IMG/VR virus record: IMGVR_UViG_2563366917_000002
DNA: 23,950 nt
From: a virus
Taxonomy: Duplodnaviria > Heunggongvirae > Uroviricota > Caudoviricetes
Direction: 5' to 3' (one strand)
Shown here: positions 4,993 to 23,950 of the stretch, one piece after another
Layout of the letters: each line of letters starts with the position of its first letter
Numbering within the stretch: the first letter of the stretch is position 1
Position numbers and translations under genes: made by a program
Notes under the pieces: model-generated
What the model was told of the DNA's origin: nothing
Database searches by the model: none
What the model saw: the letters and a program-made list of their open reading frames with translations, nothing else

Positions 4993-5125
4993 TTTTTGGG
5001 ACTCCTGGCTGATTAAGTATGTCGATAAGGCGTTTCCATCCGTCACGTAATTTACGGGTGATTCGTTCAAGTAAAGATTCGGAAGGGCAGCCAGCAACAG
5101 GCCACCCTGCAATGGCATATTGCAT
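4961..5125 (-). CDS. cIII: cIII, FtsH protease inhibitor
   Basis: Hand translation from the ATG at 5125 gives [54 protein letters not shown] (54 aa), overlapping kil as in lambda. Below the 60-aa cutoff, so absent from the ORF track. Confidence 0.8.
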   Translation of the reverse strand: MQYAIAGWPVAGCPSESLLERITRKLRDGWKRLIDILNQPGVPKNGSNNYGYPD

Positions 5126-5197
5126 GGTGTGCTCCTTATTTATACATAACGAAAAACGCCTCGAGTGAAGCGTAATTGGTATGCGGTAACGCCGCGC

Positions 5198-15075: not shown

Positions 15076-16158
15076 TTAGAACTGATAAACCAGACCTACA
15101 GCGACGATGTCGTCGGTATCAATACCAGCTGTTTTGGTAAACTTACTATCGTCAATTAAGTTGATTTTGTAATCAACAAAAGTGGACATGTTTTTATTAA
15201 AGTAGTAAGTAGCACCGACATCGACATACTTGACTAAGTCTCGGTCACCATGAACACCAAGGTCTTTACCTTTTGACTGAAGGTAAGCAACAGATGGACG
15301 CAGACCGAAGTCAAACTGATATTGTGCTACTGCTTCAAAGTTTTGTGCTTTGTTTGCAATATGGTTATTACCAAAAACGGTCATATTCTGAGTTTCAGAA
15401 TATGTGGTAGCCAGATAGATATTGTTCGCATCATATTTCAGGCCTGCAGCCCATACTTCCGCATTTTTGCCGGAGGCATTGAATTTGCTCTTACCATAGG
15501 CGACCTGACCGTCAGTGCGATCTGATTTAGCATAGGTTGCACCCACGCCGAATCCTTCATACTCATAAGTAGTGGAGAAACCGAAACCATCACCATTGGC
15601 TTCAGTTACGTCAGTGCGGTCATTTTTACCCTGATACTGAGCAGCAAAGTTCAGGCCATCGACCAGACCAAAGAAGTCGTTGTTACGATAAGTTGCAACA
15701 CCAGTAGTGCGACCAGTCATGAACACATCTGTTTGGGTCCAGGTATCACCACCGAATTCTGGCAGAACGTCAGTCCACGCACCGATGTCGTATGCTACAC
15801 CGTAGTTACGGCCGTAATCGATTGAGCCGTAATCACCAAATTTCAGGCCTGCAAATGCAAGACGGGTTTTGTCTTTGGAAGAACCTTGAGATTCAGCACG
15901 GTTGCCTTTGAATTCATATTCCCACTGACCGAAACCAGTCAGTTGATCGTTGATTTGGGTTTCACCTTTGAAGCCAAGACGGGCATAAGTAGTATCACCA
16001 TCATCTGCATCATTAGAGGAGAAGTAGTGCTTGGCATTAACTTTCCCGTATAGATCCAGCTTGTTACTGTCTTTATTATAAATTTCAGCTGCCTGAGCAG
16101 ACATCGCCATCAGTACTGATGCAGCTACAGCAGAAATTGCCACTGTTAATTTTTTCAT
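15076..16158 (-). CDS. nmpC: outer-membrane general porin, NmpC/OmpD (Lc) family, phage-borne moron
   Basis: 360 aa from [23 protein letters not shown] (signal peptide) with the porin C-terminus ...VAVGLVYQF. Same position and orientation as nmpC in DLP12. Appears intact. Confidence 0.9.
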
Positions 16159-16587
16159 TGTACGCCCTTTTTTTGAACTATTATTAAAAAATGATGTCAC
16201 TGCGCGATAAATATTCATCTAATCAATGTGATTATTTCAAGATGTAAGTTTTAGTTTCTCATTTAATTTGTGAAGTAGATCTCTATTTTTATCTGAACCT
16301 TTTCTATCTAATCCTATTCATGGCTCTTGTCTGAACAAAAATAAATCTATTAGCTAATTTATATTAATGGCACTTATTTATAAGTGCTCTATAATTCTTT
16401 AGCTTAATTTAAACAAACTAAAAATAACATTGGAAATTATTAACTGGTTATTTGTTGAAGTTTTCTTATGCATTTGTGGTGGTGTTTTGAACACTCGGTG
16501 GCATTCTCACAAATATCATTTAGTAGTTTACGTACGTAAAAAATTGGTTATGCTGTTAAGAGTGGTTACTTCGTCACACAGCTTAAA

Positions 16588-18722: not shown

Positions 18723-19049
18723 ATGAAAAGACGCCTTTTACTACTTTTTCTGTTATCTGTCCTGGCAGTGGGATGCTCGCAGCAAAAAGCTGATGAGCCC
18801 CGGCAATTAGTGACGGTGTATCCACGATATCCGGAATATGCTGCAGCAAATTATATCAAGGGGCTGGTTGAGGTTAAGTTCGATATTGGTGCTGATGGGA
18901 CTGTGACACGGATCGTTTTTCTCCGCTCAGAGCCTCATAATTTGTTTCGTGATGAAGTGGTGAAGGCCATGGCGAAATGGCGATTTGAAAAGAATCGCCC
19001 CTGTCAGGGAGTGAAGAGACAATTTATCTTTACGCCGTCACGTCCTTGA
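18723..19049 (+). CDS. lipoprotein consisting of a TonB C-terminal-like domain
   Basis: 108 aa from MKRRLLLLFLLSVLAVGCSQ (lipobox LAVGC). Residues ~30-95 align to the E. coli TonB C-terminal domain (ours YPRYPEYAAANYIKGLVEVKFDIGADGTVTRIVFLRSEPHNLFRDEVVKAMAKWRFE versus TonB [57 protein letters not shown], from memory). Confidence 0.6.
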   Translation: MKRRLLLLFLLSVLAVGCSQQKADEPRQLVTVYPRYPEYAAANYIKGLVEVKFDIGADGTVTRIVFLRSEPHNLFRDEVVKAMAKWRFEKNRPCQGVKRQFIFTPSRP

Positions 19050-19171
19050 TGCTTCCAGGTAGAGAGGGGCTGGAAGCAGGAGAAAAATGAAAGAGCCAGC
19101 GGTTATATTTTTGTCATGGCTGACGAGGAATGATGGAAGAAGGCGTTGTATGCCACACAACGCCTCACTGT

Positions 19172-19351
19172 TCATTTCTTCTTTTTCTCTGGTGGAACCC
19201 GATGAATAAGAGTTGCACTGGTTTCCGATGAGATGGCGATATACTCGGGCAAAGTATGCTGGCAGTTTTCCAACTGGTCAAAAATACCTGCTCTCGTCTG
19301 TTGCAATGCCTGCAGCATGCGGCGGCAATGCGCCTTGCTTTTACTAACCAT
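19172..19351 (-). CDS. small hypothetical protein
   Basis: 59 aa from internal ATG 19351 (MVSKSKAHCRRMLQALQQ...), with a strong GAGGAAGGA Shine-Dalgarno upstream. The track ORF extends further upstream in the same frame. Confidence 0.4.
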   Translation of the reverse strand: MVSKSKAHCRRMLQALQQTRAGIFDQLENCQHTLPEYIAISSETSATLIHRVPPEKKKK

Positions 19352-19412
19352 CTTTCCTTCCTCTATCAGTCGCTGCGTGAACTCATCATGGAATACCAGG
19401 TAAATGCGGATG

Positions 19413-19664
19413 TTATCGGTTTTGGCTACGCAGCATAGTACAAAACGGACAGGTGCATCCCGGGACGGGGGAGGCGTCACATGTCCCTGTGATGGTTGTT
19501 CCGGGTAATGTACTGTGTGGGGCATAAAAATGTCCGATAATTTTACTTTCTACCGCAGTTAGTTGATTCGTTGGTCCTGGTAGCACATTGGGCGAGGATT
19601 TAAATGCCAGGCAACTGAAGGATGATGTCGCAAGGGAGATAGCGAGAATATTTCTGATTTTCAT
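19413..19664 (-). CDS. small secreted cysteine-containing protein
   Basis: 83 aa from ATG 19664 with a signal-peptide-like N-terminus (MKIRNILAISLATSSFSCLA) and a Cys-containing mature part (...GTCDASPVPGCTCPFC...). AGAGG lies upstream. Confidence 0.4.
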   Translation of the reverse strand: MKIRNILAISLATSSFSCLAFKSSPNVLPGPTNQLTAVESKIIGHFYAPHSTLPGTTITGTCDASPVPGCTCPFCTMLRSQNR

Positions 19665-19789
19665 TTGATGATGCCTCTGTGTGAAATGACGGTAAACGAC
19701 GCACTTGTGCCGGCACATAATAGCAAGCACCATAATAGATCAGATTCGATTCTTGCTGTAAGTGATAATTATTCTCGTTTTCGGGTCCT

Positions 19790-19990
19790 TTCCGTCGATC
19801 CAACAGGTTACGGGGCGGCGACCTCGCGGTTTTTCACTATTTATGAAAATTTTTCAGGGAAAATCGTGTCGGTACTTCTCGAATATAACTTTTTGTTTTT
19901 TTTAATATTGCATCCGTAAAGGTCCGACATGAAAGTGTCCGAAAATGCCTTTTTCTGGCGTTTTCATGTCGGGCCTTGTATTTGATAATG
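19790..19990 (+). other. cos: cos site (cosQ-cosN-cosB); cosN 12-nt cohesive-end sequence at 19813-19824
   Basis: ggttacgGGGCGGCGACCTcgcggtttttcactatttatgaaaattttt matches the lambda cosN cohesive end GGGCGGCGACCT and the flanking cosB-like sequence, immediately upstream of nu1. Confidence 0.75.
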
Positions 19991-20000
19991 GGTTGTTTTC

Positions 20001-20549: not shown

Positions 20550-21306
20550 TGCAGCCGGTGCGATAGCTACAGGGCTTTTATCTCTCATTATTCCTGTTCC
20601 ACTGACGACAGTTCAGTGGGCCAATAAACATTATTACCTTCCTAAAGAGTCGTCTTATACCCCGGGGCGATGGGAAACACTGCCGTTTCAGGTTGGCATC
20701 ATGAACTGTATGGGCAACGATCTGATTCGCACGGTTAACCTGATTAAATCTGCCCGTGTTGGTTATACAAAGATGTTGCTGGGAGTGGAGGCTTATTTTA
20801 TTGAGCATAAATCACGCAACAGCCTTCTTTTTCAGCCCACGGACTCAGCTGCTGAAGATTTTATGAAATCTCATGTTGAGCCAACGATAAGGGATGTTCC
20901 TGCATTGCTGGAGCTGGCTCCATGGTTCGGAAGAAAACACCGCGATAATACGCTCACCCTGAAGCGTTTTTCCTCCGGTGTGGGGTTCTGGTGTCTGGGT
21001 GGTGCGGCAGCAAAAAACTACCGTGAAAAATCCGTGGATGTGGTCTGTTATGACGAGCTTTCCTCGTTCGAACCGGATGTTGAAAAAGAGGGTTCGCCAA
21101 CCCTGCTGGGGGATAAACGTATTGAGGGCTCTGTATGGCCAAAATCCATTCGCGGCTCGACGCCTAAAATCAAAGGCTCCTGCCAGATCGAAAAAGCCGC
21201 TAACGAGTCGGCACACTTCATGCGTTTTTATGTGCCCTGTCCGCACTGTGGGGAGGAGCAGTATCTGAAATTTGGCGATGATGCCTCGCCTATGAGACGA
21301 CAATAA
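20521..21306 (+). pseudogene. A: terminase large subunit (gpA) 5' fragment, interrupted by an IS insertion
   Basis: Homologous to the lambda gpA N-terminus (...VQWANKHYYLPKESSYTPGRWETLPFQ...). Reading frame is lambda-like up to ...KFGDDASP at 21291, then runs into the IS and stops at 21306. Confidence 0.85.
21285..21291. repeat. target-site duplication (left copy), CTCGCCT
   Basis: The 7-bp sequence ctcgcct occurs at 21285-21291 and again at 23701-23707, flanking the IS. Removing the IS and one copy restores the gpA frame. Confidence 0.6.
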
Positions 21307-21383
21307 CTCAGTCCGCCTGGCGCCGATTATTCTGGCCGGTTTTGTAACCTGAGTGTCATTTACATGATCCAACAGGAAATGGC

Positions 21384-22883
21384 GTGACGCTCAATACTTC
21401 TCAGGTCAGTTACTATATGACTCAGCGTAAGAAAGGTATAACTCAGCATATCTCGGCCATGAAGGCTGGTATCTCAGTCCGTTCTGGTCGTCGGATCGAA
21501 AAAGGAGAGTGGGCAAAAAACAGTGTTCGGCACTGGCGCACACGCAAAGATCCTCTGGAAGCTGTGTGGGACAGCATGCTTGTTCCTCTGTTGAAAGAGA
21601 GGCCGGCTCTGACACCAACAACTCTGCTGGAGATGCTACAGGATAAATATCCCGGCCAGTACCCCAACAGCCTTCGAAGAACAATGCAACGGCGGGTCCG
21701 CGAATGGAAGCTACAGTATGGTGCAGAGCAGGAGGTCATGTTCCGCCAGCGACATCAGCCCGGTCTGCGAGGTCTGTCGGACTTTACTGAACTGAAAGGT
21801 GTAGTTGTCACCATCGCCGGTAAGTTGTTGGCGCATAAGTTGTATCACTTCCGTCTGGAATGGAGCCACTGGAGCTGGATGCGGGTTGTGCTGGGTGGTG
21901 AGAGCTTCTCTGCTCTGGCTGAAGGTCTGCAGGAAGCCCTCGGACAACTGGGCGGAGTGCCGGTAGAACATAAAACGGACAGCCTGAGGGCAGCATGGAA
22001 ACAACAGGGCGAAGATGGACGCCGCGAGCTGACTGAGCGTTATGCTGCTCTCTGTCAGCACTACGGAATGCAGGGCGTACACAATAATGCCGGTCGGGGC
22101 CACGAAAATGGCTCGGTTGAAAGTGCCCACGGACATCTGAAAAGGCGTATCTGTCAGGCGCTGATACTGCGGGGCAGTAACGACTTCAGCACCATAGAAG
22201 AATATCAGGCCTTCATCACTCAGCAGGTTATGCGGCACAACCGTAACAATCAGGATCTGGTCAAGGAAGAACGTCTTCATCTGAAACCGCTGCCGCTTCG
22301 TCGCAGTGCTGACTATGATGAGCTGACTGTGAGGGTTAGCCGCAGCAGTACCATCAATGTGAAGCACGTCGTCTACAGCGTACCTTCCCGGCTTGTAGGT
22401 CAACTGTTACGGGTCCGGTTATGGGACGATCGTCTGAGCTGTTACGTTGGCAGCAGCGAGGTCATGAGCTGCCCACGTGTCAGACCAGAAAAAGGGAAGA
22501 CGCGGGCCCGTCGTATCGACTTCCGACATGTGATCGACAGTCTGGCAAAAAAGCCCGGTGCGTTCTGCCATGCAACGCTGAGAAATGACATCCTGCCAGA
22601 CGATGAATGGCGGAGGCTGTGGCGTCGCTTATGTAATCATCTGGAACCCGACATGGCAGGCAGGCTGATGGTACATGCTCTGAAACTGGCTGCAGGATAC
22701 GACGATATCTCAGTCGTGGCAAAAGGTATGGAGCAGATGCTGAATACCCCGGGAAACGTGGATCTGCACCGGCTGATGCGCTTCCTGGGTATAAAGGAAA
22801 AGGCGTTGCCGGTAGTCAATGTGAAACAGCATAACCTGAGCAGTTATGAGCAACTACTGCGTGGCAAGGGAGGTTCGCAGTGA
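21384..22883 (+). CDS. istA: IS21-family transposase IstA
   Basis: 499-aa ORF; the track start is GTG at 21384, and an internal ATG at 21417 is an alternative. N-terminal HTH (ITQHISAMKAGISVRSGRRIEKGEW) followed by a DDE-type integrase core. Confidence 0.85.
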   Translation: MTLNTSQVSYYMTQRKKGITQHISAMKAGISVRSGRRIEKGEWAKNSVRHWRTRKDPLEAVWDSMLVPLLKERPALTPTTLLEMLQDKYPGQYPNSLRRTMQRRVREWKLQYGAEQEVMFRQRHQPGLRGLSDFTELKGVVVTIAGKLLAHKLYHFRLEWSHWSWMRVVLGGESFSALAEGLQEALGQLGGVPVEHKTDSLRAAWKQQGEDGRRELTERYAALCQHYGMQGVHNNAGRGHENGSVESAHGHLKRRICQALILRGSNDFSTIEEYQAFITQQVMRHNRNNQDLVKEERLHLKPLPLRRSADYDELTVRVSRSSTINVKHVVYSVPSRLVGQLLRVRLWDDRLSCYVGSSEVMSCPRVRPEKGKTRARRIDFRHVIDSLAKKPGAFCHATLRNDILPDDEWRRLWRRLCNHLEPDMAGRLMVHALKLAAGYDDISVVAKGMEQMLNTPGNVDLHRLMRFLGIKEKALPVVNVKQHNLSSYEQLLRGKGGSQ

Positions 22884-23635
22884 GCAATATCCATCACCTT
22901 GAACGCAGCCTGCGTAAACTACGCCTGACACGAGTTGGAGCTGAATGGCACGCTCTGGAAAAACGAGCACTGGCAGAAGGCTGGACACCATCGCGCTATC
23001 TTCTGACGCTATGCAATGAAGAACTCCTGTGGCGCGAGAGTGAAAAACTGCGTCGTTATAAAAAGGAGGCCCGGTTGCCAGTTGCCAAAACGCTAAGCGA
23101 ATACGACTTCAGTCAGGTGCCGGAACTGAATGGAGCTCAGTTCCGGCAACTCTGTGAAACGACAGACTGGGTTGATGCAGGAGAAAACGTTCTGCTGTTC
23201 GGAGCCAGCGGGTTGGGGAAAAGCCATCTGGCGGCAGCGATCGTGGATGGCGTAGTAGGCCAGGGCTACCGGGCCCGGTTCTACAGCGCAGGAGAGTTGT
23301 TGCAGGAACTACGTAAAGCCAGAGCGCAGTTGAAACTGAATGAGCTGCTACTGAAACTGGATCGCTACCGGGTGATAGTGGTGGATGATCTTGGCTATGT
23401 CAAACGCGACAGCGCCGAAACGGGAGTACTGTTCGAGTTAATAGCGCATCGCTATGAACGTGGGAGCCTGGTGATAACCAGTAACCATCCGTTCAGCATG
23501 TGGGGCAGCATCTTCGTGGATGAGACTATGGCGGTGGCGGCGGCAGACCGGCTGATCCATCACGGATATATGTTCGAACTGAAAGGTGAAAGCTACAGGA
23601 AAAAGACAGCGAAGGCAGTAACAAGCGCGACTTGA
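22880..23635 (+). CDS. istB: IS21-family helper ATPase IstB (DnaC-like AAA+)
   Basis: 251-aa ORF overlapping the istA stop. Walker A GASGLGKSHLAAA and Walker B VIVVDDLGY. Confidence 0.9.
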   Translation: MSNIHHLERSLRKLRLTRVGAEWHALEKRALAEGWTPSRYLLTLCNEELLWRESEKLRRYKKEARLPVAKTLSEYDFSQVPELNGAQFRQLCETTDWVDAGENVLLFGASGLGKSHLAAAIVDGVVGQGYRARFYSAGELLQELRKARAQLKLNELLLKLDRYRVIVVDDLGYVKRDSAETGVLFELIAHRYERGSLVITSNHPFSMWGSIFVDETMAVAAADRLIHHGYMFELKGESYRKKTAKAVTSAT

Positions 23636-23700
23636 TGTCGCACTGAAGGGTGCGGCCAGTATAGTTGGCGCGAGTCGGCAAAACTAGTTGACGTCTAATA

Positions 23701-23707
23701 CTCGCCT
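23701..23707. repeat. target-site duplication (right copy), CTCGCCT
   Basis: See the left copy at 21285-21291. Confidence 0.6.
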
Positions 23708-23950
23708 TTCGGTCTTAAGTGGGAGAAGAATAAGCCAGAAAGTGTTTTCTACCTTTGTGAGCATCATGGCTGTGTGATCCATCAGTCTGAGCTTGACCAG
23801 AGTAACGGGCGGTGGATCTGTGAAAACACGGGCATGTGGACCCGTGACGGCCTGATGTTTTTCAGCGCCCGGGGTGATGAAATTCCGCCGCCGCGCTCCA
23901 TCACTTTCCATATCTGGACGGCGTACAGTCCGTTCACCACCTGGGTACAG
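23701..23950 (+). pseudogene. A: terminase large subunit (gpA) continuation after the IS; runs off the window end
   Basis: Frame from 23702 translates SPFGLKWEKNKPESVFYLCEHHGCVIHQSELDQSNGRWICENTGMWTRDGLMFFSARGDEIPPPRSITFHIWTAYSPFTTWVQ, homologous to lambda gpA ...FGLKWTPDDPSSVFYLCEH...FHIWTAYSPFTTWVQ as recalled. Confidence 0.8.

Follow-up and report, generated by a model that had tools for sequence, protein, structure and literature searches.

Which gene occupies the interval between the TonB_C lipoprotein gene and the cohesive-end site (cos) of a lambdoid prophage, and what would it contribute to the lysogen? The question is raised by IMG/VR record IMGVR_UViG_2563366917_000002 (Caudoviricetes), a stretch of 23,950 base pairs (bp) that is hereinafter called the window. 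Several open reading frames (ORFs) compete for this interval, and the three annotated records that we examined disagree with one another, each annotating other ORFs in place of an 83-codon ORF on the minus strand (hereinafter designated A83; Table 1). Comparative evidence shows A83 to be a real gene whose frame and start are correct as given here. The reading that we favour, with somewhat better than even confidence and on the strength of sequence comparison, is that A83 is an exported moron linked to metal starvation. Of the leftward genes within the right end of this phage-21-type prophage, it is the outermost.

The case for A83 as a gene comes from its conservation outside the window. In other genera, DNA similarity to the window starts about 8 nucleotides (nt) before the A83 ATG and stops at its stop codon, and homologous loci keep a purine-rich block followed by ATCATCA(A/G)ATG at the start. 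An in-frame ATG farther upstream (19733), which yields a 106-amino-acid (aa) version that is sometimes annotated, is not conserved, its variants including a Met-to-Leu change and a stop. Pairwise ratios of nonsynonymous to synonymous substitution rates (dN/dS) in the A83 frame are 0.06–0.20, with dS saturated, and 9 of 16 unique single-nucleotide polymorphisms (SNPs) in A83 are synonymous (P=0.014 against a neutral synonymous fraction of 0.24). Two loci 84–88% identical to the window (L018 and L019) were left out of the frame tests because they carry indels throughout, also inside A83, and their assemblies are probably error-ridden. Given its cross-genus conservation and these dN/dS values, A83 alone exceeds chance expectation. 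An ORF of about 83 aa on the opposite strand between the TonB_C lipoprotein gene and cos, as proposed by an earlier sequence-only reading of this DNA, is thus present and behaves as a gene.

Database homologues of A83 number 22, the full-length ones being 82–84 aa long and 54–78% identical (Salmonella, Citrobacter and Klebsiella). When 1.84 billion cluster representatives were searched exhaustively with a profile, about 25 small relatives of 79–104 aa emerged at the 50%-identity cluster level; they come from Klebsiella, Enterobacter, Serratia, Salmonella and Pantoea and are named only 'hypothetical protein', if named. The Buttiauxella relative came from a scan of genome contigs that returned only 3 loci. 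Overall, full-length relatives span 79–86 aa and 27–77% identity.

Existing annotation favours other frames. Phage PhiR57_1 is annotated with a 117-codon minus-strand ORF that shares 19413–19525 with the 3′ end of A83 in the +1 frame, and a 60-codon plus-strand ORF is called by PGAP and in the phage 21 record; PHROG or protein clusters exist for these ORFs. The phage 21 record also holds a 40-codon plus-strand ORF, and PhiR57_1 a 67-codon ORF across the promoter region. The overlap of the long ORF with A83 in another frame, to which the sequence-only reading had drawn attention, is confirmed; when the longer frame was tested as the true gene, the 83-aa frame won. In A83 homologues the N-terminal frame of the 117-codon ORF lacks an ATG and is unconserved, with a stop in the Salmonella diarizonae locus (L004); a SNP at 19360 creates a stop within the ORF in L091 and L165, and all of its protein matches are same-DNA or frameshift variants. 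The 60-codon ORF carries three stop-creating SNPs and 12 nonsynonymous against 1 synonymous change; one of the stops (19391 G>T) occurs in 44 fetched loci, which represent fewer distinct contigs, several having been fetched twice. Both ORFs overlap the A83 frame, itself under strong purifying selection. The 117-codon ORF looks spurious on this comparison and the 60-codon ORF is probably not a gene, so that either being the true gene of the locus, as the database records have it, is very improbable.

The A83 product has the features of a signal peptidase I substrate, with an MKIR N-region and a NILAISLATSSFSCLA hydrophobic core; the mean Kyte–Doolittle hydropathy of residues 5–20 is 1.48. The precursor reads MKIRNILAISLATSSFSCLA up to the predicted cleavage site and continues with FK, giving a predicted mature protein of 63 aa and 6.65 kDa with an isoelectric point (pI) of 8.5 and four cysteines. 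Across 24 family sequences, Ala20 and Phe21 (positions –1 and +1) are invariant, as are Cys62, Gly69, Cys70, Cys72 and Cys75, and Met1, Lys2, Gly60, Pro66, Leu78 and Arg79 are nearly so. Position –3 is Ala, Cys, Ser or Val, the signal peptides ending in ALA, AMA, AAA, AGA or CLA before the phenylalanine. In the mature protein a variable N-terminal half gives way to a short conserved segment, E..I...FY..H, and then to a C-terminal GTCxAxPVxGCxCxFCxxLR module. A signal peptide and a cysteine-containing mature part, both noted in the sequence-only reading, therefore appear as conserved properties of the family. A lipoprotein (signal peptidase II) reading, which calls for a lipobox [LVI][ASTVI][GAS]-Cys with an unvarying Cys at +1, was rejected on family conservation: SSFS-C18 loosely fits the permissive PROSITE-type lipobox pattern, but Cys18 lies at the unconserved position –3 and is Ala or another residue in most distant members, whose signal peptides end in ALA, AMA or AAA before the phenylalanine. 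Profile searches of A83 against Pfam (E≤1), PHROGs, NCBIfam and PDB found no match. Two proteins of 611–627 aa (P0062 and P0064), low in complexity, rich in Asn, Thr and Ile and probably eukaryotic or protist, hold 4–5 repeats of P[IL]PGCNCPKCTxLRN, close to the PVPGCxCPFCTxLR of the family C terminus; this likeness may be convergence or a shared short cysteine motif.

The link to metal starvation comes mainly from the chromosomal relatives, which are accompanied by predicted Zur operators. We used the published gamma-proteobacterial Zur box GAAATGTTATAnTATAACATTTC (PMC2706843) with its 15-bp core TGTTATAnTATAACA. In 107 kb of family loci, all 12 core matches with ≤2 mismatches lie upstream of the family gene (31–178 nt) or of pliG (50 nt, in a Salmonella operon), and experiments in E. 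coli have validated pliG as a target of Zur (PMC4219657). The chromosomal boxes have 1–3 core mismatches, as in GGAATGTTATTTTATAACATTCC (core 1 mismatch) and ATAATGTTATTATATAACAATAA. For box-bearing chromosomal copies (≤3 core mismatches), 0 of 2000 shuffled upstream regions reached the observed match, with L168 (0.0025) and L201 (0.013) as exceptions. This statistical pattern shows the association of Zur boxes with chromosomal members of the A83 family at the level of predicted operators. No Zur box was found at the window copy of A83, its best match having 4 mismatches (shuffle frequency 0.20). An A83-family gene is not mentioned in a recent zur-mutant study of K. pneumoniae, and a 2026 preprint describes the Klebsiella Zur regulon as not elucidated before.

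The neighbourhoods of the family genes include several with metal-related functions. The gene is divergent from fecI-fecR-fecA in Citrobacter and from a NikA/CntA-like binding-protein gene in Serratia, and in Klebsiella and Enterobacter it adjoins the zinc importer genes aztABCD together with genes for paralogues of dihydroorotase (PyrC) and porphobilinogen synthase (HemB). A 63%-identical copy with a decayed cos remnant occurs in 66 Klebsiella plasmid records (L011–L014 and L167; IncF), in most of which the gene is unannotated; about 700 bp away is a plasmid-borne gene for a Fur-family repressor, and zigA and a COG0523 GTPase gene are close by. In S. diarizonae (L004) the family gene is 94 nt downstream of pliG, whose 133-aa product matches PDB 4DY3 at E=8e-58, and upstream of a bor-like gene; the upstream region of the copy in S. 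arizonae (L005) can be aligned with L004. Along one strand of L004 (3456–4741), a perfect Zur core box is followed by pliG, the family gene and the bor-like lipoprotein gene, and a 322-codon ORF comes next; the arrangement resembles an envelope-defence operon responsive to zinc, set in a prophage remnant.

A83-family genes also adjoin cos in different lambdoid prophages. The homologous stretch ends with the ORF itself, which recurs in five unrelated contexts, and in the window A83 stands on the strand opposite to the late genes, with a hairpin downstream. On these comparisons A83 is best read as a moron, a self-contained mobile cassette from an uncharacterised Enterobacterales family. The suggestion in the sequence-only reading that the protein is a conversion or exclusion factor names a reasonable category in the sense of a moron, and within that category the comparative evidence points to metal-starvation biology over phage exclusion.

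At the phage locus itself, the metal connection would run through Fur. A palindrome beside cosQ resembles the 7-1-7 Fur consensus TGATAATnATTATCA, which is said to go back to Baichoo and Helmann in 2002. The palindrome and cosQ are 5 bp apart; from the palindrome, the A83 ATG is reached after about 100 nt in the leftward direction and the Nu1-like gene after 231 nt in the rightward one. No other site in the window matches the Fur box with ≤2 mismatches (expected 0.13). TA464-type prophages, which carry a 71%-identical copy of A83, have a perfect Fur box at the same place. Perfect 7-1-7 palindromes also lie 7–8 bp from cosQ in lambda (TGATAATCATTATCA; 48451–48465, L202 2152–2166) and DLP12 (TGATAATTATTATCA; L204 3095–3109), where the first leftward gene past the box is a DUF3950/YlcI-type ORF. 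The lambda ORF of this type (L202 1810–2004, 64 aa) is unannotated in the lambda RefSeq record. By comparison of these sequences, a Fur-type box is shown to be present and conserved at cos, and we infer that the window copy may control A83. Nu1 is normally transcribed from a distant late promoter and the box is nearer to the leftward gene, so we regard control of that gene as its more natural role. The DLP12 box measures –233 from the noh start, against –231 from the Nu1-type start in the window. The nohA site of Qin, likewise at –233, was recovered in an in-vivo Fur-binding screen and confirmed by gel shift, and the nohB site ranked among the strongest predicted Fur clusters in E. coli K-12 (PMC2189734). 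Literature searches on the RefSeq, FIG and PHROG identifiers of these ORFs and on a connection between Fur and cos found nothing.

From these features we infer that A83 is exported and processed, belongs to a leftward transcription unit under Fur control and has a metal-related role, in the following manner. The cassette would have been captured from an Enterobacterales family with chromosomal members behind Zur operators. In the lysogen, a promoter lying between cosQ and the start codon would drive leftward transcription of A83; when iron is low and Fur loses its iron, the gene would be derepressed and transcription would become stronger. The transcript would run through the downstream 59-codon ORF (hereinafter designated B59) and terminate at the hairpin. 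Sec would export the 83-aa precursor and signal peptidase I would cleave it behind Ala20, leaving a 63-aa, 6.6-kDa periplasmic envelope protein in which the C-x7-C-x-C-x2-C module would form a compact C-terminal unit with either two disulfides or a thiolate metal site. When the host restricts metals, A83 would then alter the envelope of the lysogen, as its neighbours iss/bor and the TonB_C lipoprotein would. For its activity, periplasmic metal handling and a PliG-type role in host defence rank highest. A more specific version, that the family consists of Zur-response four-Cys mini-proteins for zinc handling or defence against nutritional immunity, with the lambdoid copy placed behind the cosQ Fur operator and switched on in iron-poor tissue, is tentative, and we think it somewhat more apt to be wrong than right.

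A different picture arises if B59 is taken as a partner of A83, the two forming an operon that encodes a secreted protein and a basic protein acting as a conversion or superinfection-exclusion pair. B59 lies 61 nt from A83 on the same strand, with neither a stable RNA structure (z=+1.3) nor a terminator between them; a hairpin follows it (minus strand –19.4 kcal/mol, z=–3.3; plus strand –21.5 kcal/mol, z=–3.8); some annotators call it (phrog_4843, an annotation cluster only), and no premature-stop SNP was seen in it. The sequence-only reading had described a basic 59-aa protein with a strong ribosome-binding site; the frame, a pI of 9.7 and the GAGG element are indeed there, but no sign of selection accompanies them, unique SNPs being 10 nonsynonymous to 4 synonymous (P=0.45 against the neutral fraction used for A83). 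Nor does the partnership hold beyond the near-identical E. coli module: B59 is confined to DNA at least 84% identical to the window, its place being taken by a DUF3950 gene in the TA464-type prophages that share the cos-proximal gene and by unrelated DNA in the Salmonella, Klebsiella, Citrobacter and Buttiauxella loci. A 1-nt insertion cuts B59 to 24 aa in two different viral contigs (L091 and L093), a 1-nt deletion near its end alters the C terminus in L090, no protein homologues were found beyond same-DNA variants, and searches of Pfam, NCBIfam and PDB gave no credible family or structure match. An A83/B59 pair is therefore unlikely. With no structure between the ORFs and a hairpin after B59, the simplest view of the B59 region is that it forms the 3′ portion of the A83 transcript, whose 3′ end the hairpin likely marks; the hairpin is possibly also a bidirectional terminator common to the TonB_C gene. 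B59 itself is probably an orphan of doubtful coding status within this part of the transcript, a functional B59 protein being conceivable and the less probable state of affairs. The prophage small RNA svsR of NC101, tried as an explanation for the B59 region, maps to the cI gene instead. A83 could also be exported and have nothing to do with metals, as a disulfide-knotted, enterotoxin-like pre-pro-peptide or a PliG-like inhibitor for which the boxes merely signal 'inside a host'. Periplasmic cysteines are normally oxidised, the signal peptide, variable middle of about 40 aa and highly conserved four-Cys C terminus of about 22 aa would suit such a product, the Salmonella copy directly follows a lysozyme inhibitor gene, and the prophage neighbours are serum-resistance and envelope genes. 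Yet Pfam, NCBIfam, PHROGs and PDB hold no toxin, inhibitor or bacteriocin similar to A83, its cysteine spacing is unlike that of STa and guanylin, and no recurrent processing protease, exporter or immunity gene lies nearby. We consider a metal-unrelated role distinctly unlikely.

The regulatory part of the proposal faces its own competitor, in which the cosQ box acts for Nu1/noh or for cos and A83 is constitutive or responds to some other signal. Since lambda and DLP12 have perfect boxes without A83, the box may serve nohA/Nu1 or packaging instead, and the literature assigns the known sites to nohA and nohB. The window copy, with 2 mismatches, is also the most degenerate of the boxes seen and sits upstream of any plausible –35 element, not over a mapped promoter; a consensus promoter scan for A83 gave nothing convincing and no promoter overlapping the box. 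Against this stand the distances (231–233 nt to the Nu1/noh start versus about 100–135 nt to the leftward ATG), the late promoter from which Nu1 is normally read, and the presence of a small leftward gene, A83 or DUF3950, after the box in every case. We consider a box that does not serve A83 doubtful, and still a serious contender. The same observations on the box weigh against A83 as a metal-starvation-linked moron, and others join them. Many family neighbourhoods are unrelated to metals, the Zur-box loci amount to about six lineages and not twelve independent events, and no Zur box was found in the upstream regions of L191, L192 and L198. AlphaFold2 models from two alignments (predicted local distance difference test scores of 50 and 58) gave no structural clue. 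A thiolate metal site would be unusual in an oxidising compartment such as the periplasm, so disulfides are no less likely. Finally, in cluster P0030 (54 member sequences), as in P0004 and P0038, residues 1–66 of A83 run on into the 117-codon frame, which a 1-nt change in the CCCCC run at 19466–19470 could produce and which destroys the cysteine motif; such variants could be real pseudogenes, phase-like variants or homopolymer sequencing errors, which means that A83 is dispensable in places or that the sequences are wrong.

Table 1. Features at the right end of the prophage, in window coordinates.
Feature	Position	Strand	Remarks
A83, 83 codons	19413–19664	–	ATG at 19664, stop 19413–19415; conserved gene
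A83 signal peptide (predicted), codons 1–20	19605–19664	–	mature 63-aa part 19416–19604
Four-Cys motif C62-x7-C70-x-C72-x2-C75 (GTCDASPVPGCTCPFC)	19440–19481	–	24 sequences, down to 27% identity
Shine-Dalgarno-like AGAGG	19674–19678	–	9 nt ahead of A83 ATG
B59, 59-codon orphan ORF	19172–19351	–	GAGG at 19360–19363, 8 nt before ATG
117-codon ORF	19172–19525	–	annotated in phage PhiR57_1; last 59 codons are B59
N-terminal 58 codons of 117-codon ORF	19352–19525	–	apparently spurious +1-frame extension over A83 3′ end
60-codon ORF	19256–19438	+	PGAP (WP_000881610.1), RefSeq, phage 21 record; antisense to B59
Hairpin, 12 bp, G+C-rich	19139–19165	both	directly 3′ of B59 stop
Fur-box-like palindrome TGATAATTATTCTCG	19763–19777		13/15 positions of TGATAATnATTATCA (12/14 specified)
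TonB_C lipoprotein gene	18723–19049	+	Pfam PF03544, E=7e-13
cosQ and cosN cohesive-end region	19783–19824	+	phage 21 identity, cosQ annotation in OL657228.1
Nu1-type small terminase gene	start 20001	+	right of cos

The locus as a whole belongs to a widespread prophage module. At positions 19050–19990 the window shows 100% identity with the right end of Escherichia phage 21 (OL657228.1) and equally with prophages of many E. coli strains, Nissle 1917 and ATCC 25922 among them. The 551-bp segment 19150–19700 recurs at 100% identity in other strains as well, one of them an ST131 isolate; 1,231 of 5,426 complete E. coli genomes contain the segment, with ≥99% identity in 1,202 records. The local order is iss/bor (–), the TonB_C lipoprotein gene (+), the region of A83 and B59, cosQ, the cohesive end and the Nu1-type gene; cosQ occupies 19783–19789, the phage 21 genome ends at 19812, and the cohesive end GGGCGGCGACCT corresponds to 19813–19824. 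No Fur box was found upstream of the TonB_C lipoprotein gene. The signal peptide of its product ends in LAVGC, and PHROGs files the family as 'Rz-like spanin' (phrog_1267, E=5e-43), which looks like a mislabelling. An Rfam scan of 18900–20000 gave no match; the only Rfam family above threshold in the window is the lambda cIII thermoregulator element (RF01804, 88.5 bits) at 5080–5138 (–).

Elsewhere in the window, a 380-codon ORF (15076–16218, –) between the Q-type antiterminator gene and the lysis genes has the same coordinates as an OmpC-family porin (nmpC-like prophage porin) in the Nissle record, and is another late-region envelope moron. The large terminase gene is split, relative to the Nissle 1917 prophage, by an insertion of about 2.4 kb at 21292–23700; positions 23701–23950 rejoin the Nissle prophage at its position 21285, and 7 bp appear duplicated. 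The insert holds ORFs of 499 aa (21384–22883) and 251 aa (22880–23635) and looks like a candidate two-gene insertion sequence, IS21-like by layout. With its terminase gene interrupted, the prophage here would be packaging-defective.

The two kinds of element that A83 calls to mind, prophage envelope morons and exported accessory proteins under Zur or Fur control, are already known. Lambdoid right-end morons such as bor/iss and lambda orf64/DLP12 ylcI share the genomic position of A83: they lie between the lysis genes and cos, oriented against late transcription, and like A83 encode small envelope-directed or regulatory products. A83 differs from them in having chromosomal, non-phage relatives, in showing no similarity to Bor and in not being a lipoprotein. 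A homology search against proteins of the DLP12 region, which the sequence-only reading had proposed as a check, came out negative: a comparison with YbcV (DUF1398), YbcW and YlcI (DUF3950) gave no Pfam hit and nothing meaningful by BLASTP, and BLASTP of the A83-region ORFs against lambda p78, p79 and orf64 likewise found nothing meaningful. What is shared is the position of the cosQ Fur-type palindrome: in lambda, DLP12, TA464-type prophages and the phage studied here, the first leftward gene comes after it.

Among exported proteins of the Zur regulon (ZinT, PliG and AztD), the chromosomal kin of A83 share Zur boxes, aztABCD or pliG settings and predicted Sec export. They are unrelated to these proteins in sequence and much smaller (63 aa mature), their conserved residues being Cys and not His, Asp or Glu, and the phage copy differs further in lacking a Zur box. 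The Fur sites at nohA (Qin) and nohB/nohD (DLP12) have the same 7-1-7 palindrome in the same position relative to cosQ and the Nu1-type gene; the window box has two mismatches, gel-shift binding is reported for nohA and prediction for nohB, and the literature credits the noh genes. STa resembles A83 in its small precursor (72 versus 83 aa), Sec signal peptide, variable middle, Cys-rich C terminus and carriage on mobile elements, whereas A83 departs from STa and guanylin in cysteine number and spacing, has no Pfam hit and gives no sign of a second cleavage.

The A83 family is undescribed, is missing from domain libraries and is mis-annotated in phage 21 and Nissle 1917. The corrected gene model touches about a quarter of complete E. 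coli genomes as well as the reference phage 21, and adds a predicted exported product to a virulence-linked right-end cluster that already comprises iss/bor and the TonB_C lipoprotein gene. In Klebsiella, Enterobacter, Serratia and Salmonella, the members of the family are new candidate zinc-starvation genes. If the proposed regulation is true, the unexplained Fur sites at nohA and nohB would control leftward, cos-proximal morons.

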